DNA of 64,000 bases from Cyanophora paradoxa CCMP329. Its lineage: Eukaryota; Plantae; Glaucophyta. Positions 19,105 to 41,519 of the stretch are shown here, in pieces (positions within the stretch are counted from its first letter, which is position 1; each line of letters starts with the position of its first letter). The notes below the pieces were generated by a model. The model was not told the DNA's origin, searched no databases, and saw only the letters and a list, made by a program, of their open reading frames with translations. The position numbers and the translations under genes are program-made. The stretch is from contig QPMI01000038.1 in the NCBI GenBank assembly GCA_004431415.1, positions 124,001 through 188,000 on the forward strand, given 5' to 3'.

Positions 19105-19189
19105 ACACATAAAGAAATACAAATTTAAATCCCTCCGCTTCGCGCTTCGCGCTTCGCTCCTGGATTTAAATTTGTATTTCTTTATGTGT
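19105..19189. repeat. Left terminal hairpin (28-bp stem, 29-nt loop with 3x GCTTCGC)
   Basis: ACACATAAAGAAATACAAATTTAAATCC ... GGATTTAAATTTGTATTTCTTTATGTGT. Confidence 0.92.
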
Positions 19190-19543
19190 AAATTAATCGA
19201 AAATATTTAAAAAATAAATCAAAATTTTTAATAAAATCAATTAAATTTAAATAAATTCGATTAAATTAATTGGTATAATATCAATTAAATTATGATTTTA
19301 TGAAATTTATATATATTTTTGATAAATTACGTATTTCTCGATTGATTTAATGATATAAACGCGATTAATTTGTATTTAAATGAAAAATACGTATTTTGCG
19401 ATTGATATAAACGCGATTAATTTGTATTTTATGCAAAATCGATATAATCTCGATTGAGGGAACATAAATTTATGATATAATCAATCACGATTGAAGTAGT
19501 CCAGCGCCCATTCTATCGTAAAACGCAAAAATTCACACAGAGT

Positions 19544-20130
19544 TGCATTATGTCCAATTAAACAATCGATGAAATATCGGATGAAAATAATTCACTCGTT
19601 ACTGCATTATGTCCAATTAAACAATCGATGAAATATCGGATGAAAATAATTTACTCGTTAGTGCATTATGTCCAATTAAACAATCGATGAAATATCGGTT
19701 GAAAATAATTCACTCGTTACTGCATTATGTCCAATTAAACAATCGATGAAATATCGGATGAAAATAATTCACTCGTTACTGCATTATGTCCAATTAAACA
19801 ATCGATGAGATTGCGGCGTATTTTGTTGGATTAGATGGTTACTGCTTCACGTCCAATTAAACAATCGATGAGATTGCGGAAAACAAAAATGACCCCAGAG
19901 TTGCATTATGTCCAATTAAACAATCGATAAAATGGGATTCTGTTTTTTACTGTTATAAAATTGTATCTGTGGTGCATTATGTCCAATTAAATAATCGTTG
20001 AGATTGCTGTGATAAAAATAATGAAAAAGGGACACTGAGTTGCATTGCGTCCGATTAAACAATTGATAAAATGGGATTCTGTTTTTTACTGTTATAAAAT
20101 TGTATCTGTGCTGCATTATGTCCGATTGAG
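19544..20130 (+). repeat. Subterminal repeat array: 4 x 59-bp units plus degenerate TGCATTATGTCCAATTAAACAATCGAT cores
   Basis: Seen directly; the mirror copy at ~42170-42580 has only one full 59-bp unit. Confidence 0.9.
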
Positions 20131-20139
20131 ACACACCAT

Positions 20140-20781
20140 TTACCGTCTCATATTACGACGTCTACGTATTTCAACTTCTGAGAATGTCTTAAAAATCTTG
20201 CATAATTCATTTTCGTGATCTGTGACATACCACATTCGATAACGTGGCTCGTATTTAGCGCCTTGCTTCTTCATGTATTTCCGTAAAGATGATTGCAAGA
20301 AAATACGTTTTTGTTCGAATTCGGGTAATCTCAGTTTGATATCACCAACAAAGTATCGACGACGTACGATGTCGTAATAATTCGGCTCGAAAACCATAGG
20401 GTCTATCGTCGCAAACTCTTTTAAGAGACGATGGTATTTATCCTCGACATAATAATGTTTCACATCGTATGCCCATTTCGCACCGTATCGCTCGATCTTA
20501 TGCGCGTATTCCTCTGGATCTCCGATATCTAAGACATAAACACCGTAATAATCCTTCGGTTCTGTGGTTGATCCACCGTTATACACAAATGGCTCCATTT
20601 CTGGTCTTTTTATTATCATAGATGTTTTCCCTTTAAGTAGTTTGAAGGTTTTTATGGTTTTGAAGAAATCCACCACCCATTGTGTATGTTCTTTTATGAT
20701 ATGTTGAATTTCATGTAGTCTTTTTGTGGTTCTCGATTGGATACAATCTTTATTAATGGTATCTCTGTAAAAATGAAGCAT
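20140..20781 (-). CDS. Protein with two DUF5710-like repeats
   Basis: YGAKWAYDVKHYYV and QGAKYEPRYRMWYV resemble the GA(K/R)W-x5-WY motif. Confidence 0.6.
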   Translation of the reverse strand: MLHFYRDTINKDCIQSRTTKRLHEIQHIIKEHTQWVVDFFKTIKTFKLLKGKTSMIIKRPEMEPFVYNGGSTTEPKDYYGVYVLDIGDPEEYAHKIERYGAKWAYDVKHYYVEDKYHRLLKEFATIDPMVFEPNYYDIVRRRYFVGDIKLRLPEFEQKRIFLQSSLRKYMKKQGAKYEPRYRMWYVTDHENELCKIFKTFSEVEIRRRRNMRR

Positions 20782-20789
20782 TTCTCGTT

Positions 20790-21623
20790 TTAGTTTTGAT
20801 TCTTTTTAACCAAACCGCGATATACTCTAACCGAATTACCTTTGTATTTCATTACCGATGATTCAATCTTAAAGCGTTTCTTAATTATATTGCTTATCCC
20901 ACGTGATTCTACCCATATATCTTTGTCGATTAACTCTAAACAATGATTAAATATATCGCTACAACGGGTGAATTTACTGAGGTCGTTGGTTAAAGTGTAG
21001 CTCTCATTTATAAAATCACATACAATCGTCTCGATATCTTTCTCTTTTTCGTTTTTGGTCTCTGTTGTAGTTTGCGTTTCGATCTTCACGAGACCTTTGA
21101 AAACATAGAGCATCTCATCGTAAAACATCTGAGAAGTTGGATTTAAACCATTGAACACTTCACGAACTCGATAAAGAATATCAGACTCATCGAAATTTGG
21201 CGCATTGGAATTTTTTAACATTCCGAAAACATCGCCAAGTAGCACGTATTGAGGTGTGTATTTGCTTGAATCTCCGGAAAAAACATAATTGCATTCAAGG
21301 TAGTCATCTATAACCTCGTTCCAATCTATTGGCTCTTCTTCTGATTCCTCATATAGATTCTTTTTTATCATCTGACGAATTCGCGCCCTTGCTGAACGCA
21401 ACGAATCCAATTTGTAGTATTCGCCTTCACAACTCTCGAACTCTTTCTTACATAACTTCTCGATTAAGCGTGGATTGCTACAATAGATCCACTCATAAAT
21501 TGAAAAGTTGGGTAAAGCTCGTGAGTATTGAGAAATGAGATTACTTACCGAAACAGTTGAGACACCAATTTTATACTTATTGTTCGCTTGAAATTCCGGG
21601 ACTGATCCGATATAAACCGCCAT
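20790..21623 (-). CDS. T5orf172/MUG113 (GIY-YIG-like) domain fused to two D5-C-like winged-helix domains
   Basis: N-terminal VYIG...YKIG...IEK; C-terminal DFINESY...VRVYRGL resembles the helicase C-terminus. Confidence 0.65.
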   Translation of the reverse strand: MAVYIGSVPEFQANNKYKIGVSTVSVSNLISQYSRALPNFSIYEWIYCSNPRLIEKLCKKEFESCEGEYYKLDSLRSARARIRQMIKKNLYEESEEEPIDWNEVIDDYLECNYVFSGDSSKYTPQYVLLGDVFGMLKNSNAPNFDESDILYRVREVFNGLNPTSQMFYDEMLYVFKGLVKIETQTTTETKNEKEKDIETIVCDFINESYTLTNDLSKFTRCSDIFNHCLELIDKDIWVESRGISNIIKKRFKIESSVMKYKGNSVRVYRGLVKKNQN

Positions 21624-21718
21624 TATGTCGCTTTTTTATATATATATGAGTTGTCTTATCTTTAAGTGGGTTTTCTTTTGGAAATTGACCTTAAACGCAC
21701 TTAGACAGTGTCTTGTTT

Positions 21719-22024
21719 TTAGAGTATTAAGTTTCCTTCTTTGTCGTATTGATCATTTAACCACGTCTTTATAATGAGTTCTACACATGATCTTGTGGCT
21801 TCCAATGACTCAAAAAGAAAGAAATCGCCTTCATGCTCATAAAGGTCACATAAATGCTTCTTTACTAATCGTGGGTTTCTACATTTGAACCACCCGTAGA
21901 TTGAAAACGCTTTCGATGATTGCTTATTAATCACATCATTTACTGAATCGGTTGATGATAACCCGACTTTGTAAGTCTTGTAAGCAACCAACTCGGGTGT
22001 TGATCCGATATACAGAATATTCAT
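21719..22024 (-). CDS. T5orf172-like paralog (101 aa)
   Basis: LYIGSTPE...YKVGLS...IYGWFKCRNPRLVKK aligns with the N-terminus of the adjacent 277-aa ORF. Confidence 0.65.
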   Translation of the reverse strand: MNILYIGSTPELVAYKTYKVGLSSTDSVNDVINKQSSKAFSIYGWFKCRNPRLVKKHLCDLYEHEGDFFLFESLEATRSCVELIIKTWLNDQYDKEGNLIL

Positions 22025-22123
22025 GTTATGATTCTTTTATAATCAATGTCGCTTCTTCTTAAATCATCGCATGAGTTCGTAAGCCTCCTCATATCCGATC
22101 GTTTACTTACGATTGGGTTTTTT

Positions 22124-22432
22124 TGGGGCTGTTGGGCGTTATTGGGCGTTGTTGGGCACTTGTTGGGCACTTGTTGGGCACCTTTGGGCACTTTTTAATC
22201 CAAGGTCTAAAAGATTTCTTAGAATACATTTTCAAAATTCTAATTTCATTCAAAACATTTTTTTATATAGAAAAACTTTCTTAAAACGGTGCCCAAAGTG
22301 CCCAATGACATTTAAAAAGTGCCCAATGATAAAAGAAGTGCCCAATGAAACCACTTACTGTAATACAAATATTGTAGAGATATAGACCATCTTTAATGAA
22401 AAAAAGAAGCGTTCTAAATGAAGTGCCCAATG
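22124..22432. promoter_or_regulatory. Origin-like module A' (TTGGGCAC/GTGCCCAA iterons around an AT-rich core)
   Basis: Inverted near-identical copy of ~27850-28045; function inferred. Confidence 0.55.
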
Positions 22433-22537
22433 ACCATTTGTAGTAAGAAGAAGATTCAAAATCTACTTTTATATATAAATCTCTTACTCTCATAGATTTA
22501 AGGATAAAACGATAATATATATGAAAGTAAAACTACA

Positions 22538-22849
22538 ATGCCTCGTAAATCAAATCAGCAACTGATGGCGGAACAGAGAGGGGAAGTTTACATTATGCCT
22601 TGCAAAGTGACACCTGAAATGCTCTTTTTGAGACGTGAAAAGATTAGAGAATATAATCGGAAATTTTATGAAAAAGTCAAACAGAAACGAATGGAAGACG
22701 GTGAGCCAACAATCACGCCTCCGAATAGAATCGCAAATAGTAGCCGTTACCAAATGCAACGATACGCGGAAGATGAAGAGTTTCGCAATCGACAGCGTGA
22801 GAAATCACGAGAGTATTATAGAAACAAGAAAATCGCCAGATCTTCTTAA
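22538..22849 (+). CDS. Small basic coiled-coil protein
   Basis: Paralog of 24605-25030 (RKSNQ, RYAEDEEFR); TTTAAGG motif upstream. Confidence 0.75.
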   Translation: MPRKSNQQLMAEQRGEVYIMPCKVTPEMLFLRREKIREYNRKFYEKVKQKRMEDGEPTITPPNRIANSSRYQMQRYAEDEEFRNRQREKSREYYRNKKIARSS

Positions 22850-22934
22850 TGCGGAAACCATGAGACCGTGGGTTGTTCTTTCTCTGATGCCTTTATTTCA
22901 GTGAGTTAAGGCATTTTCTTACTATAAATGACTA

Positions 22935-23265
22935 TCAGGCACTTTTAGATTTATGATTGCACCACTAATATACTCGATCTTTTCACTATTTTAAGATTTC
23001 TCTTACTGTTTATGATCGTCAGGCACTTTTGAAATGTCATCAGGCATTTCAGGCACATTTTTAGGAAACTTTTTTTATAGAAAAAACAAAACACAATGAA
23101 ATTGAATTTTTAAAAACAAATTTAAGAAAGATTTTTTAGACTCTCGATTAAAAGCGCCTGAAAGTGCCTGACTGCCTGAAAAAAGTGCCTGTCAATCTGA
23201 AAATTACATATCGCTTTTTGTGATAAAGAGACTGAAAGCGTGTAGCGATCTGGGAAGTGCCTGAA
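22935..23265. promoter_or_regulatory. Origin-like module B (TCAGGCAC/GTGCCTGA iterons)
   Basis: 4-5 repeats per side around an AT-rich core related to module A. Confidence 0.55.
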
Positions 23266-23379
23266 AGTATGTAGTGGGAAGAAAAGGGACTTAAAAAATG
23301 ACACGTTATAGTAGTGATTATAGAGGTAGGATTCTACTACATTGTTTTAGAAACAACTACGGCTTGTTACTGTATATGG

Positions 23380-23650
23380 TCTGTCTGACATTCTGTTTTT
23401 TAAATCGCCACAAAATGAAAATTGTGGTCTTCTTTAATCATTCTCACTCTTACTGTAATATGGTTTGTCTGACACTTTCTTTTTCTTCTGACACTATTTA
23501 AATGTATTCTGACACTGTTGACACTGTTTTGAAAAGTTTTCTTAATAATGAATGATTTTATAAAATTTGAATTTAGAAAACACACTCCAAGAAATCTTTT
23601 TTTAAAACCTCGATTAAAAAAGTCAGACTGTCAAAACAAGCGTCAGATAG
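23380..23650. promoter_or_regulatory. Origin-like module C (TCTGACA/GTCAGA iterons)
   Basis: Same AAGAAATCTTTT...CCTCGATTAAAAA core flanked by inverted repeats. Confidence 0.5.
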
Positions 23651-23717
23651 TTGCAACAAGAAAGGGGCTTAAAAAAATGACACGTTATAGTAGTGATTAT
23701 AGAGGTAGGATTTAACA

Positions 23718-24035
23718 ATGGCGTGCGCTAATTTCTCTACTCACCTTCACGAACTGGGAGTTGATTTTACAGACTTACACTCAGAAAAACGAGATGAGAT
23801 ATTGAAGAAAACAGTTGAAGCACGAGCAAGATGTGAAGGATATAAACCAAGTCAGATACCGTCTAAATTAAAACGCATACTTGAAGAGAAAGCGATCTCC
23901 TCAATGACAAAAACATTTGAGAGTTTCGATCATGATGTAAGACACAGTGGTAATCGCTTACAGTTGAAACTAAGAAAGAAGATTGACAAACGAAACGAGG
24001 CAATAGTTCTTAGTTATCTTCTCGGTTTAATTTAG
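23718..24035 (+). CDS. Hypothetical protein (105 aa)
   Basis: ATG ORF intact in both arms; CTTAAA motif upstream. Confidence 0.65.
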   Translation: MACANFSTHLHELGVDFTDLHSEKRDEILKKTVEARARCEGYKPSQIPSKLKRILEEKAISSMTKTFESFDHDVRHSGNRLQLKLRKKIDKRNEAIVLSYLLGLI

Positions 24036-24088
24036 GATTATTTCCAAAAAAATAACAAAAAACATGAAATTACTGTATTATTTCTTTT

Positions 24089-24421
24089 TCAAACCCGTTT
24101 AGAAAGGTCATAAACTCGTTTTACTACACCATTGATCCTCCGAGTATATGCTGAAATTCCAAAAACCTTTTTTATACTCAAACCTAAAACTCGTGGTGAA
24201 ACCTTTGAATCTAAAACTTGCTGTATTTGACTGAGTAAGATATCAGCCGGGATATATTCGCCATTCTTACTTATATCGAAGCAATATAGGAGGAAATCGC
24301 AAAAAGTCATAGGTCTCTTAACTTCATCGCTTTGTATTGAATTATTATAATCGTCTTCTTCTTCATCATCATAAATCTCAATAACGTAATCTGAATCTGT
24401 TTCATCCGTTACATATTCCAT
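24089..24421 (-). CDS. Stand-alone D5-C-like winged-helix protein with acidic N-terminus
   Basis: DFLLYCFDI...SPRVLGLSIKKVFG...RRINGVVKRVY pattern matches D5/P4-alpha C-terminal wHTH. Confidence 0.6.
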   Translation of the reverse strand: MEYVTDETDSDYVIEIYDDEEEDDYNNSIQSDEVKRPMTFCDFLLYCFDISKNGEYIPADILLSQIQQVLDSKVSPRVLGLSIKKVFGISAYTRRINGVVKRVYDLSKRV

Positions 24422-24604
24422 TCTATACGTTACAGATACTGTTTTTATCCGTTACATTTTATGGATGTATTTTATTGATTTATTCGATGATTACTTCAAG
24501 GACGTAGCAAAAAATGACGCTTTCCGAACATCCAAAAAGTATTTAAGGATTTGGGAAGTAAGATAAGTGAAATAGATATTATCTTGCTCTTATATAAAGG
24601 AAAA

Positions 24605-25030
24605 ATGGTGAGAACTCGGAAATCAAACCAAGAGCTTATTGCTATGCAGAAGGGTGCAGACCTCCCACGTGTTGAAAAGAAACCTACGCTAACAGAGGAA
24701 GAATGGGAAGAAAAAGCAAAGTTGAGACGTGAGAAAGACCGTGAGAGGAAACGTATTGTTTATCAAAAGGTGAAAGAAGAGAGAATCGCAAAAGGTGAAA
24801 AGACTGCAACTCCTCCTGAGAAATTGGAAAAGATGGCTTTGTATGTTCAACGTCGATATGCAGAAGATGAAGAATTCCGAAAGAGAAGAAAAGAGATTGT
24901 CCGGAGGTATCTGGAACGGAAACGACTTGAAAAGGTTGATGAGAAAGAGGCAATTAAGAAAACCGGACGTCCTCGTAAATACAATGCTTGTAATCCCGAT
25001 ACATCATCGGAAAGTATCGTAGCGAATTGA
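24605..25030 (+). CDS. Basic coiled-coil protein with AT-hook
   Basis: TGRPRKY AT-hook; paralog of 22538-22849; ATG at 24605 preferred to the upstream TTG. Confidence 0.75.
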   Translation: MVRTRKSNQELIAMQKGADLPRVEKKPTLTEEEWEEKAKLRREKDRERKRIVYQKVKEERIAKGEKTATPPEKLEKMALYVQRRYAEDEEFRKRRKEIVRRYLERKRLEKVDEKEAIKKTGRPRKYNACNPDTSSESIVAN

Positions 25031-25204
25031 TCGATCAGAGGTGAAAAAAATGACACTTAACTTTCTCCTTTTTTATAACCTAAGGCTAATCATTATAGTG
25101 CCGTGGGCAACCAAAAAGCATTTAAGGACTTCACAATAAGAACCAGTAAAGGGAATTCATCAATTTCCTCAGATTAATTTCTCTGAGAAAGGTAAGAATC
25201 CAAG

Positions 25205-27592
25205 ATGTTTAACGCCAAGCAACCCAACGCATCTGATATAACCCTCTCCGAGAAGGCTAACCGTCATGTCCTTAAATACCTGATCGAAAACTTTGATGAG
25301 TTGAAGTATCGCCCACAAGTCGATCCAACCGCCACTCTGACGCTTCTAAACAAATACTTTAAGAGTTTGAACCGAAGTGATCGCATCACTGTTAAATATC
25401 GCCAATGCTCACACAACACCGGGCGCTATTACTCTAACGTTCGAAACATAAAGAAAAAACAGGTTTCGATGCAAGAGATGCCCCGTGAATTTCGACACAC
25501 ACTTGCCCGTGAAAACTATATTGATATCGATATGATTAACGCTCACCCAACGCTTCTTATCCAATATTGTAAAAAAAATGAAATCGCATGCAACGCTCTT
25601 GCTAATTACGTTGAAAATCGCGACTCTATCATCGCCGATATAATCGAGAAATCGAGACTCACTCGTGAAGACATTAAACGTGCATTCCTTTCTGTTATTA
25701 ACGGCGGCGACGGAACTGACAACGAAGCTCTTCTCAATCACCCCGATTTCAAAAAATTAAAAGAGGAAATGGCTGGTATTCATGCTCTTATCGCAAACAT
25801 ACCCGAAAACAAAAACTACCTACTCATCTGCAAGAAGAAGAAAGACCACAACATCCTCGGTTCGGTAGTTAATATGGTTCTCTGTAATATCGAGAATCAA
25901 TGCCTCATGGCTCTTTGTGAGTATCTCACTTCACTGGGTATTAAGGTTGGAGTTCTCGTTTTCGATGGTTGTATGATTGAGAAAGACCCAAAATTTCCGG
26001 AAGAGCGTGTTGCATCCATCTTGAAGGAAGCATCGGAATATATCGAAAACACAATCGGTTATAAGGTTGGATTGCTGATTAAACCGATGGATCAAGGATT
26101 TGAAATCCCCGCAAATTTGGATGAAGGAATTCCTCTCTGCCGGGTAATTATCGACGATTCACATGCTGCCTCATTATTCGTTAATGATATCGAGGGGCAA
26201 ATCATCAAATGTGACGGTCGTATTTTCGCCCGGAAGGACGACAGCCTATGGACTGAGGATACGAAATTGGTGAAGGGAATTCTCTTAAAATTGTGCATGC
26301 AAGCGCATTTCGTGAAAGAAGACGCAAAAGGGAACCTGAGATCATATTCCGGTGAAACACCAAATGCTAAAAGAATCATCGAAGCTGTAATCCCTCTCCT
26401 TCCCAATCGTCAGAATTTCTACGAGGAGTTATGGAGTTCTACCATTGGGAAAATATGCTATCAGAACGGAGTGTATGATTTCAAGACAAAGAAGCTTACA
26501 CCGTGGAAGGATTGTAAGAATGTTTACTCGACTACTCGAATCTCTCGTGACCTTCCCGTGGATGATAACGGCTACATTCTCAAACCATCCGATGCTGATA
26601 TTCAGACTCTCTACGATAAAGTTCTTGAACCCGTTTTCGGTGCCGAAAGTGTAACGTCCGCTCTTGAATTTACGGCTCGTGCGGTTGCGGGTTGTTATGA
26701 AGATAAGCAATGGGGACTATCGGTGGGTGAACGTAATTGTGGAAAGGGGGTTTACGTCAATCTTCAAGAGAACACATGGGGCGATTATGTCCACACCATA
26801 AGCGGTGAGTCTTTCCTCTTAAACAAAAGCGTAGACGATAATGATACATCGAAATTGAAGTGGATGAAGCCATGTGAATTCCGTCGTTTGACTTTCACAC
26901 AAGAGATGAAATTCGATGTTTCAAACACCAATATCAAATTGAACGGCGCTATGATCAAAAAGAAGGAATCAGGTGGTGATATGCAATGTATGCGTGTTCT
27001 GTATGAGAATGAGGTTAACATTCGACTTCAAAGTCGTATATGGATGATCATGAATGATGTGCCGCCCGTCTCACCTTCTGATACACTCCAAACCATGGTA
27101 TTATTCAAGCATCCCCACAAATTCGTCGATCAGAAAACAGTTGAAGAGATGAATAGCCCGTGTTTCCGTTTGGCGTCAGAAGACATTAAAAGCGATCTGC
27201 TGCGACGTCCTGAAATTATTCACGCCTTTGAATACATGGTTTTCGAAGCCTTCAAGTCACAGAAGTTTGTGGTATCGGGGAAGATCGCCGAAGACGTAAG
27301 CGAGTTTCGTGAAGATGCGGGCGACGAAATGCAAATAATTAAAAGCGCATTCGAATTCACCCGTGATCCTTCCGATGCTGTATCAAGCAAAACAGTCGTT
27401 GATAAATTGAAGGAACTTAAACTTAACATGTCCGCGAATCGTATTAAAAGCGTTATGGTGTTGATGGGCGCTACATATAGTAAAGCTGCTATTCGAAAGG
27501 GAAATACAGCTACTTATGAACGAGGATATAAGGGCGTTAAATTGATCTCTACTACCCGATTTGTAGATGATGATGACGATGTCGAAGCGTAA
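25205..27592 (+). CDS. TVpol (PolA-family primase-polymerase) fused to D5-like SF3 helicase, 795 aa
   Basis: GRYY; motif A YIDIDMINAHP; motif B REDIKRAFLSVING; motif C VLVFDG; D5_N-like YQNGVYD; Walker A GERNCGKG; Walker B-like LTFTQE; sensor MIMND; C-terminal wHTH. Confidence 0.88.
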   Translation: MFNAKQPNASDITLSEKANRHVLKYLIENFDELKYRPQVDPTATLTLLNKYFKSLNRSDRITVKYRQCSHNTGRYYSNVRNIKKKQVSMQEMPREFRHTLARENYIDIDMINAHPTLLIQYCKKNEIACNALANYVENRDSIIADIIEKSRLTREDIKRAFLSVINGGDGTDNEALLNHPDFKKLKEEMAGIHALIANIPENKNYLLICKKKKDHNILGSVVNMVLCNIENQCLMALCEYLTSLGIKVGVLVFDGCMIEKDPKFPEERVASILKEASEYIENTIGYKVGLLIKPMDQGFEIPANLDEGIPLCRVIIDDSHAASLFVNDIEGQIIKCDGRIFARKDDSLWTEDTKLVKGILLKLCMQAHFVKEDAKGNLRSYSGETPNAKRIIEAVIPLLPNRQNFYEELWSSTIGKICYQNGVYDFKTKKLTPWKDCKNVYSTTRISRDLPVDDNGYILKPSDADIQTLYDKVLEPVFGAESVTSALEFTARAVAGCYEDKQWGLSVGERNCGKGVYVNLQENTWGDYVHTISGESFLLNKSVDDNDTSKLKWMKPCEFRRLTFTQEMKFDVSNTNIKLNGAMIKKKESGGDMQCMRVLYENEVNIRLQSRIWMIMNDVPPVSPSDTLQTMVLFKHPHKFVDQKTVEEMNSPCFRLASEDIKSDLLRRPEIIHAFEYMVFEAFKSQKFVVSGKIAEDVSEFREDAGDEMQIIKSAFEFTRDPSDAVSSKTVVDKLKELKLNMSANRIKSVMVLMGATYSKAAIRKGNTATYERGYKGVKLISTTRFVDDDDDVEA

Positions 27593-27659
27593 CTCTTGAT
27601 ATTAAACAGAGCATTCGTATTTTTTATAAATCGTAAGAGGTTTTTCTTACTGTTTAAGG

Positions 27660-28060
27660 TCGTTGGGCACTTCTTTTTTTACATATGTTACTCTTTCGAA
27701 AAGATGGTTTATATCTGTTCTATACCTATATTACTGTTTATGGTTTCATTGGGCACTTCTTTTATCATTGGGCACTTCTTTTTTTACATATGTTACTCTT
27801 TCGAAAAGATGGTTTATATCTGTTCTATACCTATATTACTGTTTATGGTTTCATTGGGCACTTCTTTTATCGTTGGGCACTTTTTAAATGTCATTGGGCA
27901 CTTTGGGCACCGTTTTAAGAAAGTTTTTCTATATAAAAAAATGTTTTGAATGAAATTAGAATTTTGAAAATGTATTCTAAGAAATCTTTTAGACCTTGGA
28001 TTAAAAAGTGCCCAAAGGTGCCCAACAAGTGCCCAACAGTGCCCAAAAAAATGCCCAATG
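27660..28060. promoter_or_regulatory. Origin-like module A directly downstream of the helicase gene, including a ~105-bp tandem duplication
   Basis: 7 TTGGGCAC then 4-5 GTGCCCAA copies around a ~95-bp AT-rich core. Confidence 0.6.
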
Positions 28061-28157
28061 GTTAAAGTAAAAACGTTGCTTCAAATCACATTTGATAATG
28101 CATCACATATACGAGAATGTTTACAAAAACAATTAATAAAATCACTCACCGAGCGTT

Positions 28158-28910
28158 TCACTCTGATTTATACGATTCCAAAAAGACCCACTCGAAACTG
28201 TGGATAATCTCGATACGATTCATTATATCTAAATGGGACATATACGGTTGCATACCAAAAACTGTGTTTCGCATGAAAGATACCAAACCTCCCCAATCAC
28301 CACGTTTTGCATAATCTTGATACATTTTATTATTTTGTTTGAAGGTGAGAGCATCATAAATGGCTTTCATCGTTTCATTAAGTGTCATTTTGTAAGAAAG
28401 CGGTCTCAAAATCTTATCGTACAACTCACTTATGTTAATTTCACACGGTTTTACGATCTTTCCCGTTTCATCTACAACGAGATCGCGAGATATACAATAA
28501 AAAGCATAGATTCCTTCACATTTATCCCATGCTATAAGTCTCTTTGTTTCTATATCGTAGACGCCGTTTTGATAACATAGTTTACCAATCGTAGACGGTC
28601 TCATAACCTGTTTATAAAAGTCGTTTCGATCTTCAAGAATCGCTTTTGAGATCTTAATGACCTTTTGAGCATTCGTTAAATTATGTGTATAACGGAGAAT
28701 CTCACCTTTACTGTTCTTCTTGTAGACATTCAAACGCATACATAGTTTGAGCATCGCTTGATTAATGAACGCTACATTATTCGTCCATAGGTGGTTATTT
28801 TGTTTAGTGTAAATGACACCATCAGATAGTATAAACTTGCCGTCGAGATCTTTTACAAACAATTCCGCGGCTTCATAATCGGAAGAGGCAAACACGAGAG
28901 ATTCCGACAT
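28158..28910 (-). CDS. Truncated helicase paralog (D5_N region; no polymerase, no P-loop)
   Basis: STIGKLCYQNGVYD, ISRDLVVD and EIIHSFE match STIGKICYQNGVYD, ISRDLPVD and EIIHAFE of the 795-aa protein. Confidence 0.85.
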   Translation of the reverse strand: MSESLVFASSDYEAAELFVKDLDGKFILSDGVIYTKQNNHLWTNNVAFINQAMLKLCMRLNVYKKNSKGEILRYTHNLTNAQKVIKISKAILEDRNDFYKQVMRPSTIGKLCYQNGVYDIETKRLIAWDKCEGIYAFYCISRDLVVDETGKIVKPCEINISELYDKILRPLSYKMTLNETMKAIYDALTFKQNNKMYQDYAKRGDWGGLVSFMRNTVFGMQPYMSHLDIMNRIEIIHSFEWVFLESYKSE

Positions 28911-29001
28911 GTTTCTTATTTTATTTCAAAGGTGCTTTTTCTTTAAATAGGAAAAAAGCACTTAAAGACATGTTAACTCTTATAATAAAACGAATCATCA
29001 G

Positions 29002-29733
29002 ATGGATTGTGTCATTTGTTTGAACAAGCTGAACCCAAAGAAGGCTACCAAACTCGAATGTGGTCACAAATTCTGTAAGAAGTGTTTTGATGATTGGGAT
29101 AAAGCGAATGTATCAAAGTATGATCTCCTACCAATTTGTAAAGGTAAACCGTTTTGTGATTCAGATGACGCTTTTTTAATTAATCTTTCTCTGTCGAAAG
29201 CATGGGTAAGTTGTCCTCTCTGTAAACAAGATCACACTTATATGAATTGGGAGACTTTCCATGGTAAGAAGAAGAAACCCGTTTTAAAGAAAGTGATATG
29301 TAAGATTTGGTTCGCTAAGGAGGACTGCGGCAATGTAGACGCTTGTGATCTTATCACAGATCAGAGACATTTAATAAAGTATATACCACTGAGCGATAGG
29401 AAATTAATGAAAGAGGGGAAAGATCCAAAATACGACCATTCGTATAATGTGATTACCTATTTTGAGAAATGCATAGCTGAACACGAAACAGACATACACA
29501 TGAATAACTGTATGTGTAATGATAAGAAATGTAGCAAAATATTCCCTGTGTCTGCGAAAGAGTGCAATTGTCTTAATCATACAACCCCTTGGGATTTCGA
29601 GAATTGGCTAAAAACATTTAATCCCGACTCGAAAGATTGGATGGATAGAATGACATTCTATAACAAAACTAAATATCACATCTCTACGGGTCAATTGAGA
29701 ATGCGAACGCGTGAGAACACCGCAAATTCATAA
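29002..29733 (+). CDS. RING-finger (C3HC4) protein, putative E3 ligase
   Basis: CVIC...CGHKFCKKC...(long insert)...CPLC; extra C-terminal Cys cluster. Confidence 0.8.
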   Translation: MDCVICLNKLNPKKATKLECGHKFCKKCFDDWDKANVSKYDLLPICKGKPFCDSDDAFLINLSLSKAWVSCPLCKQDHTYMNWETFHGKKKKPVLKKVICKIWFAKEDCGNVDACDLITDQRHLIKYIPLSDRKLMKEGKDPKYDHSYNVITYFEKCIAEHETDIHMNNCMCNDKKCSKIFPVSAKECNCLNHTTPWDFENWLKTFNPDSKDWMDRMTFYNKTKYHISTGQLRMRTRENTANS

Positions 29734-29891
29734 CATGTCCCTCTTTCAAACGCACTTTAATATGGGTCTTTTTTTTACAAACCTTCACAGAAATGTGTGG
29801 TTTTGCTTCACAGAACCGTGTAGGTTTATGTTTCGATCTACGCAAACAGCTACAATGTCCTGTATAGGTAGTTTTGAAAAATAAAGCGTTT

Positions 29892-30434
29892 TCACTCTTT
29901 CCTGTTCCGATAACATTCGCATTCTGAAAGAAATGACCTTAATATTAACTTCCTTATTGCGTCGCGACCTTCCCAATTGTTGTGATCTTTACCAAAAAGT
30001 TTGACAAAGTCTAAGATATGGATAAACTCAGGACGTGATACATAATTAGGTAAATCAAACGGCTCCGTTTCTATTTCCCAATAATTCACTTTGTAGAAAT
30101 ATAACAAACCGTCAGATCCCTTAGCATAATGTATATCGGGATTCTCCGTAAAATATCCGATTTGCTCAATTTTCCAGCGTCTCGCGACTATTATGTCGCT
30201 ATTATCTAATTCATTCATAAACATAATCAATCTATCGACATTGATTTTGATTAAGGAAGAATTAACTGAAAACACGGGTTTTCCGTCGTAAATATACGGC
30301 GTCTCCATCATTGCAATCAATCTTAGCACAGCGTTAGGATGTCTCCCATGCCGCTTAAATGGCTTCATTTTTTGCCCGCTCAAAAAATGAAACCATAACC
30401 TGTAATGCAACGCTCCGTTATGCAACGCATCCAT
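29892..30434 (-). CDS. Hypothetical protein (180 aa)
   Basis: ATG ORF, mirrored at 31883 with a late frameshift. Confidence 0.65.
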   Translation of the reverse strand: MDALHNGALHYRLWFHFLSGQKMKPFKRHGRHPNAVLRLIAMMETPYIYDGKPVFSVNSSLIKINVDRLIMFMNELDNSDIIVARRWKIEQIGYFTENPDIHYAKGSDGLLYFYKVNYWEIETEPFDLPNYVSRPEFIHILDFVKLFGKDHNNWEGRDAIRKLILRSFLSECECYRNRKE

Positions 30435-30607
30435 TTATGGTCGAATCTAATGATGCTACATATGTATTCGTCGAAAAAGAGAATTTACATTATGTTGCTC
30501 ATTGAAAACCTTAATATACTCTCTTTTTCCGGCTTACTAAAATAACAAATCCACTTTATGTGTGAAAAATCATTTAAAGTTAAAATAATAGACATTTCCA
30601 ATGTAAG

Positions 30608-31750
30608 ATGCCTTTAAAATTAACAAAAGAAAGTTTTATAGAAAAAGCGAAAACTGTCCATGGGGATGCATATGGATACGATGAAGTTATTTATGAACAT
30701 AGTTTAAGTGAAGTCACAATTTACTGCAAAGTATGTAATGCGTATTTCACCCAACTTCCTGTAAATCATTTAAGAAAAAAGGGGTGCCGAATGTGTGCAA
30801 TACAAAAACGAGCCTCTGCAAATCGTAATGAATTACATGATTTAATAAGTAAAGCTCAAAGAATTCATGGAGACAAATATGATTATTCCATGATCGAAAA
30901 GTATGAAGGGATGACAAAACACGTTAGCATTCTTTGTAAAACATGTAAAACAGAGTTTAAACAGACATTATCATGTCATATAAACTACAAATTTGGATGT
31001 AGAAAATGTGGACATGCAAAAAAAAGCAAAGAGTCCCGAATACCTATAACAGAAGTTTTAGAACGTTTTAGATCTCAGCATGGAGAAAAGTATGATTACA
31101 CACATGTGCAATTTGAAAAGACAAGTGATGTTATAAACATCTTCTGCAAAACATGTAATGAGAGTTTTAAGCAAAGAGTCGATTCACATTTTAAAACAGG
31201 TTGCCGAAAATGCGGTAATAAACAAAATGGGCTTAACTGTCGCTCCACACAGGAAGAAGTTATTAAACGTTTTGAGACAATCCATAATGGGGCTTTCGAC
31301 TATTCTTTGGTAAAATATCAGACCACAAAAACCAAAGTAAAAATAATATGCAAAAAATGTAATTGTATTTTTGAACAGACGCCGTCTAACCACTTTAAAA
31401 GAGGCTGTCCTAATTGCAAAGTTTCACATGGGGAAAGAAAAGTGAAACAGGTCTTAGACTCTTATAACTTTGATTACTTGCAACAGTTTAGTTTTCAGGA
31501 TTGTAGGTATAAATTACCTTTGAGATTCGATTTTTATATAACCTCTTTGCGAATTGCAATTGAATATGACGGAGAACAACATAGGAAAATTGTCAATTTT
31601 TTTGGAGGTAAAGAAGCATTTGAGGAAACACAAAAGCGGGATGGTATCAAAAACAGATACTGTGAGATCAACAATATCAAACTTTTGAGAATACCACACA
31701 CTGAAAAAGAAATAAAGGCGACTATTGACTTATTCTTAAAAACCCTCTAA
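30608..31750 (+). CDS. Endonuclease: four DUF723-like Zn-ribbon repeats plus C-terminal Vsr/DUF559-like PD-(D/E)XK domain
   Basis: 4x HG-x-x-(Y/F)-(D/G)-Y...CKxC...F-x-Q...H...GC-x-x-C; SHGE...FDFY...IEYDGEQH...D-x-x-KN-x-YC...LLRIP, an architecture known from giant-virus and phage putative homing endonucleases. Confidence 0.85.
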   Translation: MPLKLTKESFIEKAKTVHGDAYGYDEVIYEHSLSEVTIYCKVCNAYFTQLPVNHLRKKGCRMCAIQKRASANRNELHDLISKAQRIHGDKYDYSMIEKYEGMTKHVSILCKTCKTEFKQTLSCHINYKFGCRKCGHAKKSKESRIPITEVLERFRSQHGEKYDYTHVQFEKTSDVINIFCKTCNESFKQRVDSHFKTGCRKCGNKQNGLNCRSTQEEVIKRFETIHNGAFDYSLVKYQTTKTKVKIICKKCNCIFEQTPSNHFKRGCPNCKVSHGERKVKQVLDSYNFDYLQQFSFQDCRYKLPLRFDFYITSLRIAIEYDGEQHRKIVNFFGGKEAFEETQKRDGIKNRYCEINNIKLLRIPHTEKEIKATIDLFLKTL

Positions 31751-31882
31751 AAGACACATAAAGTGGATTTGTTATTTTAGTAAGCCGGAAAAAGAGAGTA
31801 TATTAAGGTTTTCAATGAGCAACATAATGTAAATTCTCTTTTTCGACGAATACATATGTAGCATCATTAGATTCGACCATAA

Positions 31883-32425
31883 ATGGATGCGTTGCATAAC
31901 GGAGCGTTGCATTACAGGTTATGGTTTCATTTTTTGAGCGGGCAAAAAATGAAACCATTTAAGCGGCATGGGAGACATCCTAACGCTGTGCTAAGATTGA
32001 TTGCAATGATGGAGACGCCGTATATTTACGACGGAAAACCCGTGTTTTCAGTTAATTCTTCCTTAATCAAAATCAATGTCGATAGATTGATTATGTTTAT
32101 GAATGAATTAGATAATAGCGACATAATAGTCGCGAGACGCTGGAAAATTGAGCAAATCGGATATTTTACGGAGAATCCCGATATACATTATGCTAAGGGA
32201 TCTGACGGTTTGTTATATTTCTACAAAGTGAATTATTGGGAAATAGAAACGGAGCCGTTTGATTTACCTAATTATGTATCACGTCCTGAGTTTATCCATA
32301 TCTTAGACTTTGTCAAACTTTTTGGTAAAGATCACAACAATTGGAAGGTCGCGACGCAATAAGGAAGTTAATATTAAGGTCATTTCTTTCAGAATGCGAA
32401 TGTTATCGGAACAGGAAAGAGTGAA
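31883..32425 (+). CDS. Mirror copy of the 180-aa hypothetical protein (1-nt deletion near 32345)
   Basis: Identical up to KDHNNW. Confidence 0.6.
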
Positions 32426-32581
32426 AACGCTTTATTTTTCAAAACTACCTATACAGGACATTGTAGCTGTTTGCGTAGATCGAAACATAAACCTACACGG
32501 TTCTGTGAAGCAAAACCACACATTTCTGTGAAGGTTTGTAAAAAAAGACCCATATTAAAGTGCGTTTGAAAGAGGGACATG

Positions 32582-33312
32582 TTATGAATTTGCGGTGTTC
32601 TCACGCGTTCGCATTCTCAATTGACCCGTAGAGATGTGATATTTAGTTTTGTTATAGAATGTCATTCTATCCATCCAATCTTTCGAGTCGGGATTAAATG
32701 TTTTTAGCCAATTCTCGAAATCCCAAGGGTTGTATGATTAAGACAATTGCACTCTTTCGCAGACACAGGGAATATTTTGCTACATTTCTTATCATTACAC
32801 ATACAGTTATTCATGTGTATGTCTGTTTCGTGTTCAGCTATGCATTTCTCAAAATAGGTAATCACATTATACGAATGGTCGTATTTTGGATCTTTCCCCT
32901 CTTTCATTAATTTCCTATCGCTCAGTGGTATATACTTTATTAAATGTCTCTGATCTGTGATAAGATCACAAGCGTCTACATTGCCGCAGTCCTCCTTAGC
33001 GAACCAAATCTTACATATCACTTTCTTTAAAACGGGTTTCTTCTTCTTACCATGGAAAGTCTCCCAATTCATATAAGTGTGATCTTGTTTACAGAGAGGA
33101 CAACTTACCCATGCTTTCGACAGAGAAAGATTAATTAAAAAAGCGTCATCTGAATCACAAAACGGTTTACCTTTACAAATTGGTAGGAGATCATACTTTG
33201 ATACATTCGCTTTATCCCAATCATCAAAACACTTCTTACAGAATTTGTGACCACATTCGAGTTTGGTAGCCTTCTTTGGGTTCAGCTTGTTCAAACAAAT
33301 GACACAATCCAT
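32582..33312 (-). CDS. Mirror copy of the RING protein (frameshift near 32728)
   Basis: Identical up to LNHTT. Confidence 0.75.
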
Positions 33313-33405
33313 CTCTGATGATTCGTTTTATTATAAGAGTTAACATGTCTTTAAGTGCTTTTTTCCTATTTAAAGAAAAAGCACCTTTGAAATAAAATAA
33401 GAAAC

Positions 33406-34158
33406 ATGTCGGAATCTCTCGTGTTTGCCTCTTCCGATTATGAAGCCGCGGAATTGTTTGTAAAAGATCTCGACGGCAAGTTTATACTATCTGATGGTGT
33501 CATTTACACTAAACAAAATAACCACCTATGGACGAATAATGTAGCGTTCATTAATCAAGCGATGCTCAAACTATGTATGCGTTTGAATGTCTACAAGAAG
33601 AACAGTAAAGGTGAGATTCTCCGTTATACACATAATTTAACGAATGCTCAAAAGGTCATTAAGATCTCAAAAGCGATTCTTGAAGATCGAAACGACTTTT
33701 ATAAACAGGTTATGAGACCGTCTACGATTGGTAAACTATGTTATCAAAACGGCGTCTACGATATAGAAACAAAGAGACTTATAGCATGGGATAAATGTGA
33801 AGGAATCTATGCTTTTTATTGTATATCTCGCGATCTCGTTGTAGATGAAACGGGAAAGATCGTAAAACCGTGTGAAATTAACATAAGTGAGTTGTACGAT
33901 AAGATTTTGAGACCGCTTTCTTACAAAATGACACTTAATGAAACGATGAAAGCCATTTATGATGCTCTCACCTTCAAACAAAATAATAAAATGTATCAAG
34001 ATTATGCAAAACGTGGTGATTGGGGAGGTTTGGTATCTTTCATGCGAAACACAGTTTTTGGTATGCAACCGTATATGTCCCATTTAGATATAATGAATCG
34101 TATCGAGATTATCCACAGTTTCGAGTGGGTCTTTTTGGAATCGTATAAATCAGAGTGA
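33406..34158 (+). CDS. Mirror copy of the truncated helicase paralog
   Basis: Identical 250 aa. Confidence 0.85.
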   Translation: MSESLVFASSDYEAAELFVKDLDGKFILSDGVIYTKQNNHLWTNNVAFINQAMLKLCMRLNVYKKNSKGEILRYTHNLTNAQKVIKISKAILEDRNDFYKQVMRPSTIGKLCYQNGVYDIETKRLIAWDKCEGIYAFYCISRDLVVDETGKIVKPCEINISELYDKILRPLSYKMTLNETMKAIYDALTFKQNNKMYQDYAKRGDWGGLVSFMRNTVFGMQPYMSHLDIMNRIEIIHSFEWVFLESYKSE

Positions 34159-34719
34159 AACGCTCGGTGAGTGATTTTATTAATTGTTTTTGTAAACATT
34201 CTCGTATATGTGATGCATTATCAAATGTGATTTGAAGCAACGTTTTTACTTTAACCATTGGGCATTTTTTTGGGCACTGTTGGGCACTTGTTGGGCACCT
34301 TTGGGCACTTTTTAATCCAAGGTCTAAAAGATTTCTTAGAATACATTTTCAAAATTCTAATTTCATTCAAAACATTTTTTATATAGAAAAACTTTCTTAA
34401 AACGGTGCCCAAAGTGCCCAATGACATTTAAAAAGTGCCCAACGATAAAAGAAGTGCCCAATGAAACCATAAACAGTAATATAGGTATAGAACAGATATA
34501 AACCATCTTTTCGAAAGAGTAACATATGTAAAAAAGAAGTGCCCAATGATAAAAGAAGTGCCAATGAAACCATAAACAGTAATATAGGTATAGAACAGAT
34601 ATAAACCATCTTTTCGAAAGAGTAACATATGTAAAAAAAGAAGTGCCCAACGACCTTAAACAGTAAGAAAACCTCTTACGATTTATAAAAAATACGAATG
34701 CTCTGTTTAATATCAAGAG

Positions 34720-37106
34720 TTACGCTTCGACATCGTCATCATCATCTACAAATCGGGTAGTAGAGATCAATTTAACGCCCTTATATCCTCGTTCATAAGT
34801 AGCTGTATTTCCCTTTCGAATAGCAGCTTTACTATATGTAGCGCCCATCAACACCATAACGCTTTTAATACGATTCGCGGACATGTTAAGTTTAAGTTCC
34901 TTCAATTTATCAACGACTGTTTTGCTTGATACAGCATCGGAAGGATCACGGGTGAATTCGAATGCGCTTTTAATTATTTGCATTTCGTCGCCCGCATCTT
35001 CACGAAACTCGCTTACGTCTTCGGCGATCTTCCCCGATACCACAAACTTCTGTGACTTGAAGGCTTCGAAAACCATGTATTCAAAGGCGTGAATAATTTC
35101 AGGACGTCGCAGCAGATCGCTTTTAATGTCTTCTGACGCCAAACGGAAACACGGGCTATTCATCTCTTCAACTGTTTTCTGATCGACGAATTTGTGGGGA
35201 TGCTTGAATAATACCATGGTTTGGAGTGTATCAGAAGGTGAGACGGGCGGCACATCATTCATGATCATCCATATACGACTTTGAAGTCGAATGTTAACCT
35301 CATTCTCATACAGAACACGCATACATTGCATATCACCACCTGATTCCTTCTTTTTGATCATAGCGCCGTTCAATTTGATATTGGTGTTTGAAACATCGAA
35401 TTTCATCTCTTGTGTGAAAGTCAAACGACGGAATTCACATGGCTTCATCCACTTCAATTTCGATGTATCATTATCGTCTACGCTTTTGTTTAAGAGGAAA
35501 GACTCACCGCTTATGGTGTGGACATAATCGCCCCATGTGTTCTCTTGAAGATTGACGTAAACCCCCTTTCCACAATTACGTTCACCCACCGATAGTCCCC
35601 ATTGCTTATCTTCATAACAACCCGCAACCGCACGAGCCGTAAATTCAAGAGCGGACGTTACACTTTCGGCACCGAAAACGGGTTCAAGAACTTTATCGTA
35701 GAGAGTCTGAATATCGGCATCGGATGGTTTGAGAATGTAGCCGTTATCATCCACGGGAAGGTCACGAGAGATTCGAGTAGTCGAGTAAACATTCTTACAA
35801 TCCTTCCACGGTGTAAGCTTCTTTGTCTTGAAATCATACACTCCGTTCTGATAGCATATTTTCCCAATGGTAGAACTCCATAACTCCTCGTAGAAATTCT
35901 GACGATTGGAAGGAGAGGGATTACAGCTTCGATGATTCTTTTAGCATTTGGTGTTTCACCGGAATATGATCTCAGGTTCCCTTTTGCGTCTTCTTTCACG
36001 AAATGCGCTTGCATGCACAATTTTAAGAGAATTCCCTTCACCAATTTCGTATCCTCAGTCCATAGGCTGTCGTCCTTCCGGGCGAAAATACGACCGTCAC
36101 ATTTGATGATTTGCCCCTCGATATCATTAACGAATAATGAGGCAGCATGTGAATCGTCGATAATTACCCGGCAGAGAGGAATTCCTTCATCCAAATTTGC
36201 GGGGATTTCAAATCCTTGATCCATCGGTTTAATCAGCAATCCAACCTTATAACCGATTGTGTTTTCGATATATTCCGATGCTTCCTTCAAGATGGATGCA
36301 ACACGCTCTTCCGGAAATTTTGGGTCTTTCTCAATCATACAACCATCGAAAACGAGAACTCCAACCTTAATACCCAGTGAAGTGAGATACTCACAAAGAG
36401 CCATGAGGCATTGATTCTCGATATTACAGAGAACCATATTAACTACCGAACCGAGGATGTTGTGGTCTTTCTTCTTCTTGCAGATGAGTAGGTAGTTTTT
36501 GTTTTCGGGTATGTTTGCGATAAGAGCATGAATACCAGCCATTTCCTCTTTTAATTTTTTGAAATCGGGGTGATTGAGAAGAGCTTCGTTGTCAGTTCCG
36601 TCGCCGCCGTTAATAACAGAAAGGAATGCACGTTTAATGTCTTCACGAGTGAGTCTCGATTTCTCGATTATATCGGCGATGATAGAGTCGCGATTTTCAA
36701 CGTAATTAGCAAGAGCGTTGCATGCGATTTCATTTTTTTTACAATATTGGATAAGAAGCGTTGGGTGAGCGTTAATCATATCGATATCAATATAGTTTTC
36801 ACGGGCAAGTGTGTGTCGAAATTCACGGGGCATCTCTTGCATCGAAACCTGTTTTTTCTTTATGTTTCGAACGTTAGAGTAATAGCGCCCGGTGTTGTGT
36901 GAGCATTGGCGATATTTAACAGTGATGCGATCACTTCGGTTCAAACTCTTAAAGTATTTGTTTAGAAGCGTCAGAGTGGCGGTTGGATCGACTTGTGGGC
37001 GATACTTCAACTCATCAAAGTTTTCGATCAGGTATTTAAGGACATGACGGTTAGCCTTCTCGGAGAGGGTTATATCAGATGCGTTGGGTTGCTTGGCGTT
37101 AAACAT
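34720..37106 (-). CDS. Mirror copy of TVpol-SF3 helicase (single frameshift near 35908)
   Basis: The 482-aa and 373-aa ORFs together cover the 795-aa protein. Confidence 0.85.
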
Positions 37107-37279
37107 CTTGGATTCTTACCTTTCTCAGAGAAATTAATCTGAGGAAATTGATGAATTCCCTTTACTGGTTCTTATTGTGAAGTCCTTAAATGCTTTTTGG
37201 TTGCCCACGGCACTATAATGATTAGCCTTAGGTTATAAAAAGGAGAAAGTTAAGTGTCATTTTTTTCACCTCTGATCGA

Positions 37280-37705
37280 TCAATTCGCTACGATACTTTC
37301 CGATGATGTATCGGGATTACAAGCATTGTATTTACGAGGACGTCCGGTTTTCTTAATTGCCTCTTTCTCATCAACCTTTTCAAGTCGTTTCCGTTCCAGA
37401 TACCTCCGGACAATCTCTTTTCTTCTCTTTCGGAATTCTTCATCTTCTGCATATCGACGTTGAACATACAAAGCCATCTTTTCCAATTTCTCAGGAGGAG
37501 TTGCAGTCTTTTCACCTTTTGCGATTCTCTCTTCTTTCACCTTTTGATAAACAATACGTTTCCTCTCACGGTCTTTCTCACGTCTCAACTTTGCTTTTTC
37601 TTCCCATTCTTCCTCTGTTAGCGTAGGTTTCTTTTCAACACGTGGGAGGTCTGCACCCTTCTGCATAGCAATAAGCTCTTGGTTTGATTTCCGAGTTCTC
37701 ACCAT
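37280..37705 (-). CDS. Mirror copy of the AT-hook coiled-coil protein
   Basis: Identical translation. Confidence 0.75.
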   Translation of the reverse strand: MVRTRKSNQELIAMQKGADLPRVEKKPTLTEEEWEEKAKLRREKDRERKRIVYQKVKEERIAKGEKTATPPEKLEKMALYVQRRYAEDEEFRKRRKEIVRRYLERKRLEKVDEKEAIKKTGRPRKYNACNPDTSSESIVAN

Positions 37706-37888
37706 TTTTCCTTTATATAAGAGCAAGATAATATCTATTTCACTTATCTTACTTCCCAAATCCTTAAATACTTTTTGGATGTTCGGAAAGCGTCATTTTT
37801 TGCTACGTCCTTGAAGTAATCATCGAATAAATCAATAAAATACATCCATAAAATGTAACGGATAAAAACAGTATCTGTAACGTATAGA

Positions 37889-38221: not shown

Positions 38222-38274
38222 AAAAGAAATAATACAGTAATTTCATGTTTTTTGTTATTTTTTTGGAAATAATC

Positions 38275-41511: not shown

Positions 41512-41519
41512 AACGAGAA

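Follow-up and report, generated by a model that had tools for sequence, protein, structure and literature searches.

We analysed a 64,000-nucleotide stretch of DNA from Cyanophora paradoxa CCMP329 (contig QPMI01000038.1, positions 124,001 to 188,000), which we call the window and in whose own numbering all positions are given. An integrated element lies within it, made of two 11.4-kb inverted arms that are 99.8% alike and flank a 1.19-kb centre, and each arm carries a copy of a replicase gene (encoding a primase-helicase) together with four origin-like modules, in which arrays of short repeats (iterons) converge on an AT-rich core. We refer to the modules of the left arm as M1 to M4; M4 lies directly downstream of the replicase gene, and M1, M2 and M3 do not (Table 1). 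An earlier reading of the sequence, referred to here as the original prediction, had described four modules per arm with opposed arrays around a related core of ~95 bp, and in this it was right: the modules lie where it placed them, and their mirror copies are present on the right arm.

Four modules on one scaffold

The modules share a common plan, in which opposed iteron arrays, with at least two iterons on each side, stand on either side of a core of 95–97 bp that is 80–82% AT. M4 contains 11 exact copies of GTGCCCAA and one of ATGCCCAA, and M1 contains nine exact copies of GTGCCCAA and two of ACGCCCAA. M2 has nine copies of GCCTG(A/T), five of which are exact GTGCCTGA, and M3, according to a by-eye reading of the scan, has eight copies with a GTCA core, three of which are exact GTGTCAGA. 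The original prediction held that the iterons differ from module to module. The words do differ, but they are of three types and not four, since M1 is an inverted copy of M4, and the M3 word, given there as GTCAGA, does have the GTCA core but is the octamer GTGTCAGA. All three words occupy the same slots, with the M3 octamer in register with the other two, and the M2 word differs from the M4 word at 2 of 8 positions. A converging-array detector run over the left arm returned six bins, of which five fall on the modules (M4 accounting for two) and the sixth on a terminal array, compared with a mean of 0.03 and a maximum of 1 over 100 Markov resamples.

The cores align beyond their AT-richness. 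When reverse-complemented, the M1 core matches that of M4 at 97 of 97 positions, and the two modules are 95% identical over 234 bp in inverted orientation. The M2 and M3 cores are each 73.2% identical to the M4 core (z 7.2 and 7.6, respectively) and 64.9% identical to each other (z 4.7), and for no pair was the alignment score reached by any of 300 dinucleotide shuffles. The spacers are homologous too, with 87 of 132 (M2) and 96 of 141 (M3) non-iteron columns identical to M4 and a difference between modules of ~30%, and the outer iterons are preceded by a second motif, TTACTG-N-ATGG, which has seven matches in the window and none in 100 shuffles. We conclude that a single iteron-core-iteron scaffold is present in four homologous copies. 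All four cores also fall within the least stable 0.3–0.6% of 97-bp windows between 20131 and 31160, as computed from nearest-neighbour values. Behind both M2 and M3 stands the same 51-bp sequence, which is likely the recombination point.

On this shared scaffold the iteron word has changed as a whole. Every copy in M2 (9/9) and in M3 (8/8) has the change to the module's own word, in both orientations of the arrays, and no module contains an exact or one-mismatch copy of the word of another. M1, M2 and M3 could in principle be duplicates of M4 from within this lineage. Their words would then have been rewritten without any second protein, through drift and through conversion between iterons, and the modules would later have been lost from a sister copy of the element that is described below. 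Modules duplicated with the same word do occur in related loci (L071, where they are 95% alike; L084, in tandem; L021; and L149), and M4 itself has an internal duplication. We nevertheless consider this history very unlikely, because the change spans both opposed arrays while the spacers stay distinct, because no mixed words are left, and because such a pattern accompanies a changed wing in three related helicases (L003, L005 and L019).

Table 1. Features of the element and its left arm, with the right-arm mirror copies (window positions)
Feature	Position	Strand	Description
Whole integrated element	19105..43041		23.9 kb; ~35% GC vs ~70% GC in flanks (GC profile)
Left terminal palindrome	19105..19189		28-bp arms, starting with ACACATAAAG; counterpart at 42935-43041
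T5orf172/GIY-YIG-like ORF	20790..21623	-	277 aa; Atlas 0.93 to T5orf172/MUG113 clusters
Module M1	22132..22430	-	Inverted copy of M4; iteron GTGCCCAA; core 22192-22288
Basic ORF	22538..22849	+	103 aa; paralog of the ORF before the helicase gene, 44% identity over 104 aa
Module M2	22935..23264	+	Iteron GTGCCTGA; core 23057-23153
51-bp sequence behind M2	23283..23333	+	Repeated behind M3 at 23661-23712, 94-96% alike
Module M3	23384..23647	+	Iteron GTGTCAGA; core 23525-23619
ORF common to sister copy	23718..24035	+	105 aa; purifying selection
110-aa ORF	24089..24421	-	Winged-helix-like by eye only; helicase-tail profile E 1.7
Basic ORF before helicase gene	24605..25030	+	141 aa
Replicase (helicase) gene	25205..27592	+	795 aa; PolA-like (TVpol-type) primase domain, D5_N, SF3 ATPase, C-terminal winged-helix layout
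Module M4	27663..28058	+	Iteron GTGCCCAA; core 27911-28007; 105-bp internal duplication; begins 70 bp after helicase stop
D5_N-region paralog	28158..28910	-	Intact, 250 aa; 40% identity over 186 aa to helicase
Zinc-ribbon/endonuclease gene	30608..31750	+	380 aa; only single-copy part; PHROG endonuclease families E 1e-73
Right-arm mirror copies	34257..40180		M4' ~34257-34653, M3' 38662-38923, M2' 39042-39370, M1' ~39872-40180
ORF, open reading frame; SF3, superfamily 3.

The replicase and its relatives

The protein encoded ahead of M4 matches PHROG primase families (E 5e-11), and its structure model (predicted local distance difference test, pLDDT, 76) retrieves poxvirus D5/E5 and the PriRep structure 7OLA of SaPI5, a Staphylococcus aureus pathogenicity island (SaPI), with Foldseek (E 4e-10 to 5e-9); a sequence search of the PDB gave no useful match. 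The motifs DxDxxN, FDG and GxRxxGKG are conserved, the Walker A-type sequence of this protein is GERNCGKG, and in the predicted model residues 705–776 form a helix-helix-hairpin tail. The Foldseek matches, the tail topology and the Walker A motif agree in pointing to an SF3 helicase of the D5/PriRep fold with a C-terminal winged helix. Judged by its motifs, the N-terminal part fits a PolA-like TVpol domain. A replicase of either the pPolB or the TVpol/AEP-SF3 type is expected of a polinton-like virus (AEP, archaeo-eukaryotic primase), and the element has one of the latter type. TVpol-SF3 fusions are reported to occur in virophages (PMC3671162).

The gene and M4 together resemble the replication module of SaPIs and other phage-inducible chromosomal islands (PICIs), such as PriRep5 with its ori in SaPI5 and pri-rep-ori in EcCICFT073, which likewise join an SF3 helicase to a fused primase and a C-terminal winged helix and have 6–12 short opposed iterons with element-specific words around an AT-rich centre directly behind the gene. 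The element differs from these islands in its eukaryote-like host, in a primase domain that by its motifs is PolA-like and not AEP, in being known here from sequence, and in the number of its modules, which total eight, use three words and in six cases do not adjoin a helicase gene. Phage P4, with its alpha protein, its ori and crr and its octamer iterons, is similar in that primase, helicase and initiator are combined in one chain and the octamers are both direct and inverted. Besides its origin, P4 has a further site with iterons, which offers a precedent for M1; the word there is the same, whereas in M2 and M3 a complete copy of the origin scaffold bears other words. SaPI Reps are reported to bind, through the winged-helix tail, opposed iterons around an AT-rich centre directly behind rep (PMC9371898; 10.64898/2026.10.17.759575), and a PICI test showed replication driven by rep and ori together (PMC6092414). 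The proposal of a P4/SaPI-type origin is supported, with M4 standing directly behind a D5/PriRep-like helicase of C-terminal winged-helix layout and the same layout recurring in relatives, and we regard M4 as likely the element's cognate replication origin.

Relatives of the replicase were found with an alignment as query, and we kept the best 80 of 196 viral and the best 80 of 552 metagenomic matches, with up to 8 kb to either side of the helicase; scans of viral contigs with single sequences (the helicase or the D5_N fragment) found nothing. Many of these 160 loci are viral contigs of 15–28 kb. The polinton-like viruses and virophages that have a TVpol-SF3 replicase share it with the element as a homologue, at 24–36% identity. 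The 151 complete helicases, the one from the window included, form 66 clusters at 80%. In a gene-content scan of 42 ORFs from 10 loci (of 81 ORFs in 11 loci), 4 of the 10 loci had an A32 ATPase and one had a Sputnik-type minor capsid gene, so that many of the relatives are polinton-like viruses or virophages.

A strict detector found arrays near the helicase stop in 15 of 122 evaluable loci, compared with 42 elsewhere in 1.31 Mb. When non-coding DNA was scored by cluster, a converging array lay at most 450 bp downstream of the helicase in 15 of 54 evaluable clusters (window included), and this test yielded 57 arrays (9 from the window) against 6.4 expected from shuffles. In a fixed-window test, an array was found behind 14 of 58 helicases compared with 26 of 279 other long ORFs (p 0.003).

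The iteron words vary widely from clade to clade across a 36-row tree. In three close relatives (L003, L005 and L019) the ATPase regions are 96–98% identical and the tails ~90% identical, the wing tips read KRFG, KIRG and KRDG, and the words GCCCCA, GCCCCC and GCCCTGA, respectively, sit on one scaffold directly behind the helicase stop. As judged from these alignments, the iteron appears to vary along with the wing tip, which is a lead. The original prediction had proposed that the modules have different specificities, and the concerted change of all iterons supports it, as does this covariation; the recoding of M2 and M3 is quite likely the mark of other wing tips.

When the longest locus of each of the 65 other clusters was inspected, over the 8 kb at most that it covers to each side, none had two homologous modules with different words. 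Bacterial satellites are known to have origins of this type; three words on one scaffold in one element were met with neither in these relatives nor in the literature searched. A literature search that took in preprints without their supplements found no iteron origins in polinton-like viruses and no multi-specificity element, and such modules may be among the short repeat arrays drawn in figures of 10.64898/2026.10.13.758929 and PMC11296320. The available portions of the polinton-like virus and virophage literature name no iteron origins, and those of the PgVV preprint mention neither iterons nor a replication origin.

A blastn search of the 160 related loci with M1–M4 gave no match of at least 35 bases, and of three scans of IMG/VR with M2/M3 scaffold patterns one gave no matches, one gave 10 that were all unrelated, and one gave 5 that lie inside coding DNA. 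The pattern TCTGACA matched 22 loci. Several (L173, L179, L183 and others) have a long gene with a helicase-like tail that is followed by a converging array, but none scored on the helicase profile and their cores are unrelated. In one large clade (L021, L149, L001, L034, L040 and kin) the array lies ~5 kb upstream of the helicase stop; L021 and L149 have it twice with the same word, GAGGAC, and in L034 and L040 the word is GTAGAC. Small basic helical ORFs adjoin the array in L046, L049, L026, L071 and L074, similar in character to the element's two basic paralogs, with no match by tblastn.

A sister copy and the proposed source of M2 and M3

Between 22100 and 28100, 93–97% of sequence words are present in 20 sequencing runs from 18 studies of one organism (one run being possibly the source of the assembly). 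Contigs from two runs (X7 and X19) match 22717–23322 and 23304–23701, and thus M2 and M3, with no differences. An assembly artefact, from a fold-back read or collapsed repeats, would agree with the small number of differences between the arms (23 columns, of which 18 are right-arm losses of a single base, typical of long-read error). The short-read contigs of other runs, which match the left-arm M2, M3 and helicase region, refute such an artefact for the modules. The palindrome also ends exactly at a 6-bp target-site duplication, and in all four runs the centre contig (30534–31783) extends 30 bases into either arm before it breaks off, as expected of a graph branch at a real inverted repeat, leaving an assembly artefact with next to no credibility. 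The right-arm copy of the helicase gene (34720–37106) is split by one-base losses in homopolymers, likely a read error because short-read contigs match the left arm without gaps.

The runs also contain a second, diverged copy of the region, ~90–95% identical to the element. In 4 of 4 runs this sister copy joins 22054 to 22488, across M1, and 22829 to 23701, across M2 and M3, with 126 bases at the latter joint; M1 is missing from it with the segment ~22070–22487, and the flanking genes are kept. The extra modules M1–M3 are therefore dispensable. Among the changes listed (40 of 58), 13 of 14 sister substitutions in the ORF at 23718 are synonymous, as are 7 of 15 in the ORF at 22538. Under a model of gain, M2 and M3 did not diverge in place, because their divergence from M4 far exceeds that between the sister elements. 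No other copy of M2 or M3 was seen among 20 records per run at 80% likeness, in contigs that drop rare variants, and the loose ends found were the M4 copy and one at 24051, with none in M2 or M3.

Our preferred reading, to which we assign a probability of about 55%, is that M4 is the element's own origin, M1 is its inverted copy, and M2 and M3 are passengers, orphan origins that came from sister elements by recombination with their genes left behind. Sister replicons are the likely source because the element has no helicase of those specificities, and such a source would be in line with the turnover of replicases in polinton-like viruses, as described in 10.64898/2026.10.13.758929 and PMC11296320. 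By analogy with the SaPI Reps, the GTGCCCAA arrays flanking the core would be where helicase hexamers attach by their C-terminal winged helix, after which they would melt the core and load, with the N-terminal domain priming synthesis. A change of wing tip would force the joint rewriting of all iterons in a lineage and so give rise to M2- and M3-type origins. Only with a sister helicase supplied in trans would these be more than silent or weakly bound in this element.

Several observations weigh against this reading. Position alone is not decisive, because 21 of the 54 clusters have no array and 18 have theirs away from the downstream side (8 within 600 bp upstream and 10 elsewhere); some of the arrays detected in relatives look like chance, and the fixed-window detector missed M4 itself. 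The covariation of iteron and wing tip comes from three kin. The original prediction had proposed checking relatives for a helicase gene directly followed by an M2- or M3-type module, and none turned up in the 160 related loci, in the IMG/VR pattern scans or in two runs from this organism. The helicase of the element may also recognise M2, given that SaPI Rep1 told origins apart poorly in vitro (PMC9371898) and that the M2 word differs from the M4 word at 2 of 8 positions. M2 and M3 are about as intact as the cognate arrays of relatives, which passive remnants would not need to be. The terminal palindromes are a possible alternative route of priming, and two deletions in the sister would account for the comparison with it as well as two or three insertions here.

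The intactness of M2 and M3 raises the alternative that selection keeps the extra origins, the element being replicated in trans by, or soaking up, the helicases of co-resident sister elements; the original prediction had likewise suggested that the element might use or titrate the replicases of related elements. The element would then be a capsid-less, near-palindromic polinton-like derivative that collects sister origins, so that any helicase active in the cell would either copy it or be sequestered by it, a eukaryotic case of origin piracy, and its arsenal would include an origin-directed nuclease and an ATPase-less helicase fragment aimed at relatives. We consider this picture, taken as a whole, unlikely. 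Iterons, spacing and an equally unstable core are all preserved in M2 and M3, both modules are identical letter for letter in two runs, and the 6-kb stretch around them recurs across studies; this identity may merely reflect one recent insertion. Contig depth at the element ends is 30–50 times that of the interior, a weak hint that the host genome contains many elements sharing these ends. On the other side, the sister copy manages without M1–M3, and no matching helicase was found in the host runs at 80% likeness.

The nuclease of this alternative would be the product of the ORF at 20790–21623, which likely combines a T5orf172/GIY-YIG-type N-terminus with a C-terminal domain resembling the helicase winged-helix tail, as far as profiles can tell. 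Its tail scores against the tail profile of the relatives' helicases with E 3.8e-4 (among 575 window ORFs); taken alone, the tail has an Atlas value below 0.9. The fold model of the 277-aa protein has a pLDDT of 40 and is unusable, and the protein has no Pfam match. Winged-helix domains beyond that of the replicase had been anticipated, and this tail is in keeping with the idea, whereas the 110-aa ORF fails to score. Homologue searches with the 110-aa and 277-aa ORFs were empty. One or two winged-helix-like repeats can be seen in the 277-aa ORF, and the sister copy diverges or skips at 21197–21347, in the first of them.

A comparable two-part build is found in Odn of phage ICP1, in which a T5orf172 nuclease is joined to a domain that binds the origin (10.1101/2021.02.21.432181). 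By analogy, the element's putative nuclease could be Odn-like, a T5orf172-type protein with a candidate origin-type binding domain. In the PICI-like elements (PLEs) that Odn attacks, the origin and the domain that binds it change together, as one module; a PLE swaps its origin, whereas the element carries several simultaneously. The likeness to Odn is a lead only, since giant viruses have a common family of T5orf172 proteins this size, and such proteins also occur beside D5-like helicases elsewhere (PMC11296320). The helicase fragment would be the 250-aa D5_N paralog, which lacks the primase, the ATPase motifs and the tail; it is possibly a dominant-negative subunit and could poison foreign hexamers.

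M2 and M3 might instead serve as operators or partition-like sites, derived from the origin scaffold, at which the element's accessory winged-helix proteins regulate neighbouring small genes. One arm does have three words and up to three winged-helix-like domains, and the shared 51-bp sequence behind M2 and M3 stands ahead of an ORF under purifying selection. The sister, however, has the same genes without the modules, an operator would have no use for a full AT-rich core and both arrays, and the profile does not recognise a helicase-type tail in the 110-aa ORF, so that we regard such a role as quite improbable.

Whether M2 and M3 are passengers, as we prefer, or are used, the locus bears on two questions about those polinton-like viruses and virophages that have primase-helicase replicases, namely at which sites their DNA synthesis begins and why the replicases turn over so often. 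It supplies one protein tail with three matched origin variants on a single scaffold, and the relatives add a natural trio of wing tips and iterons; a test of origin identity and of the specificity code therefore needs no more than short DNA and a single small domain. This gives a ready test of how such viruses distinguish their own DNA from that of a relative. If the orphan origins were used in trans, the element would be a eukaryotic parallel of satellite origin piracy.

The surrounding element and its flanks

The element is bounded by the target-site duplication GACCCT at 19099–19104 and 43042–43047, and its arms make up 95% of 19105–43041. Terminal inverted repeats with a target-site duplication, as in polinton-like elements, are thus present, and Halocafeteria elements with non-pPolB replicases also have a 6-bp target duplication and terminal palindromes (10.64898/2026.07.28.741278). 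The element differs from polinton-like viruses in the extent of its arms and in having no recognised capsid, packaging ATPase or integrase gene: no double jelly-roll capsid or A32 packaging ATPase was recognised when 12 element ORFs were compared with Pfam and 11 with PHROGs, and no integrase of its own (rve or tyrosine recombinase) was recognised inside 19105–43041, with rve ORFs lying only outside it at 12677–13726 and 44237–45121. Besides the helicase and the nuclease, all element ORFs are at most 277 aa long, and of the 11 accessory proteins compared with the 160 related loci, the D5_N fragment alone had a match. The terminal 28-mer has no match in viral contigs, no tRNA was found, Rfam gave no match across 14000–32000, and promoter-like sites occur at chance frequency.

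The terminal 10-mer ACACATAAAG also occurs at the inner arm ends (30563 and 31754), where it brackets the single endonuclease gene, as if the endonuclease were a cargo gene between two complete units. About 11 subterminal repeats of 59–71 bp with TGCATTATGTCCAATTAAACAATCGAT lie at 19527–20127 and 42174–42580. A separate high-depth repeat at 14850–16315 has converging arrays of its own, CCTGTCAC at 15688–15789 and TCAAC at ~15484–15640, and a unit of the form ACACATA...TATGTGT at 16032–16315; a loose end with TGTGACG suggests recoded variants, and the repeat is a candidate non-autonomous relative built of origin-like modules. Further out, a 1.9-kb direct repeat (99.7%) stands on each side of the region, at 12831–14750 and 44226–46142, and contains an rve integrase ORF that is rich in AT, together with a unit of 800 bp whose ends form a short inverted repeat. 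The GC-rich flank contains, as a likely sign of a eukaryotic host, at 5662–9804 the pol region of a long terminal repeat retrotransposon with reverse transcriptase, RNase H and integrase.

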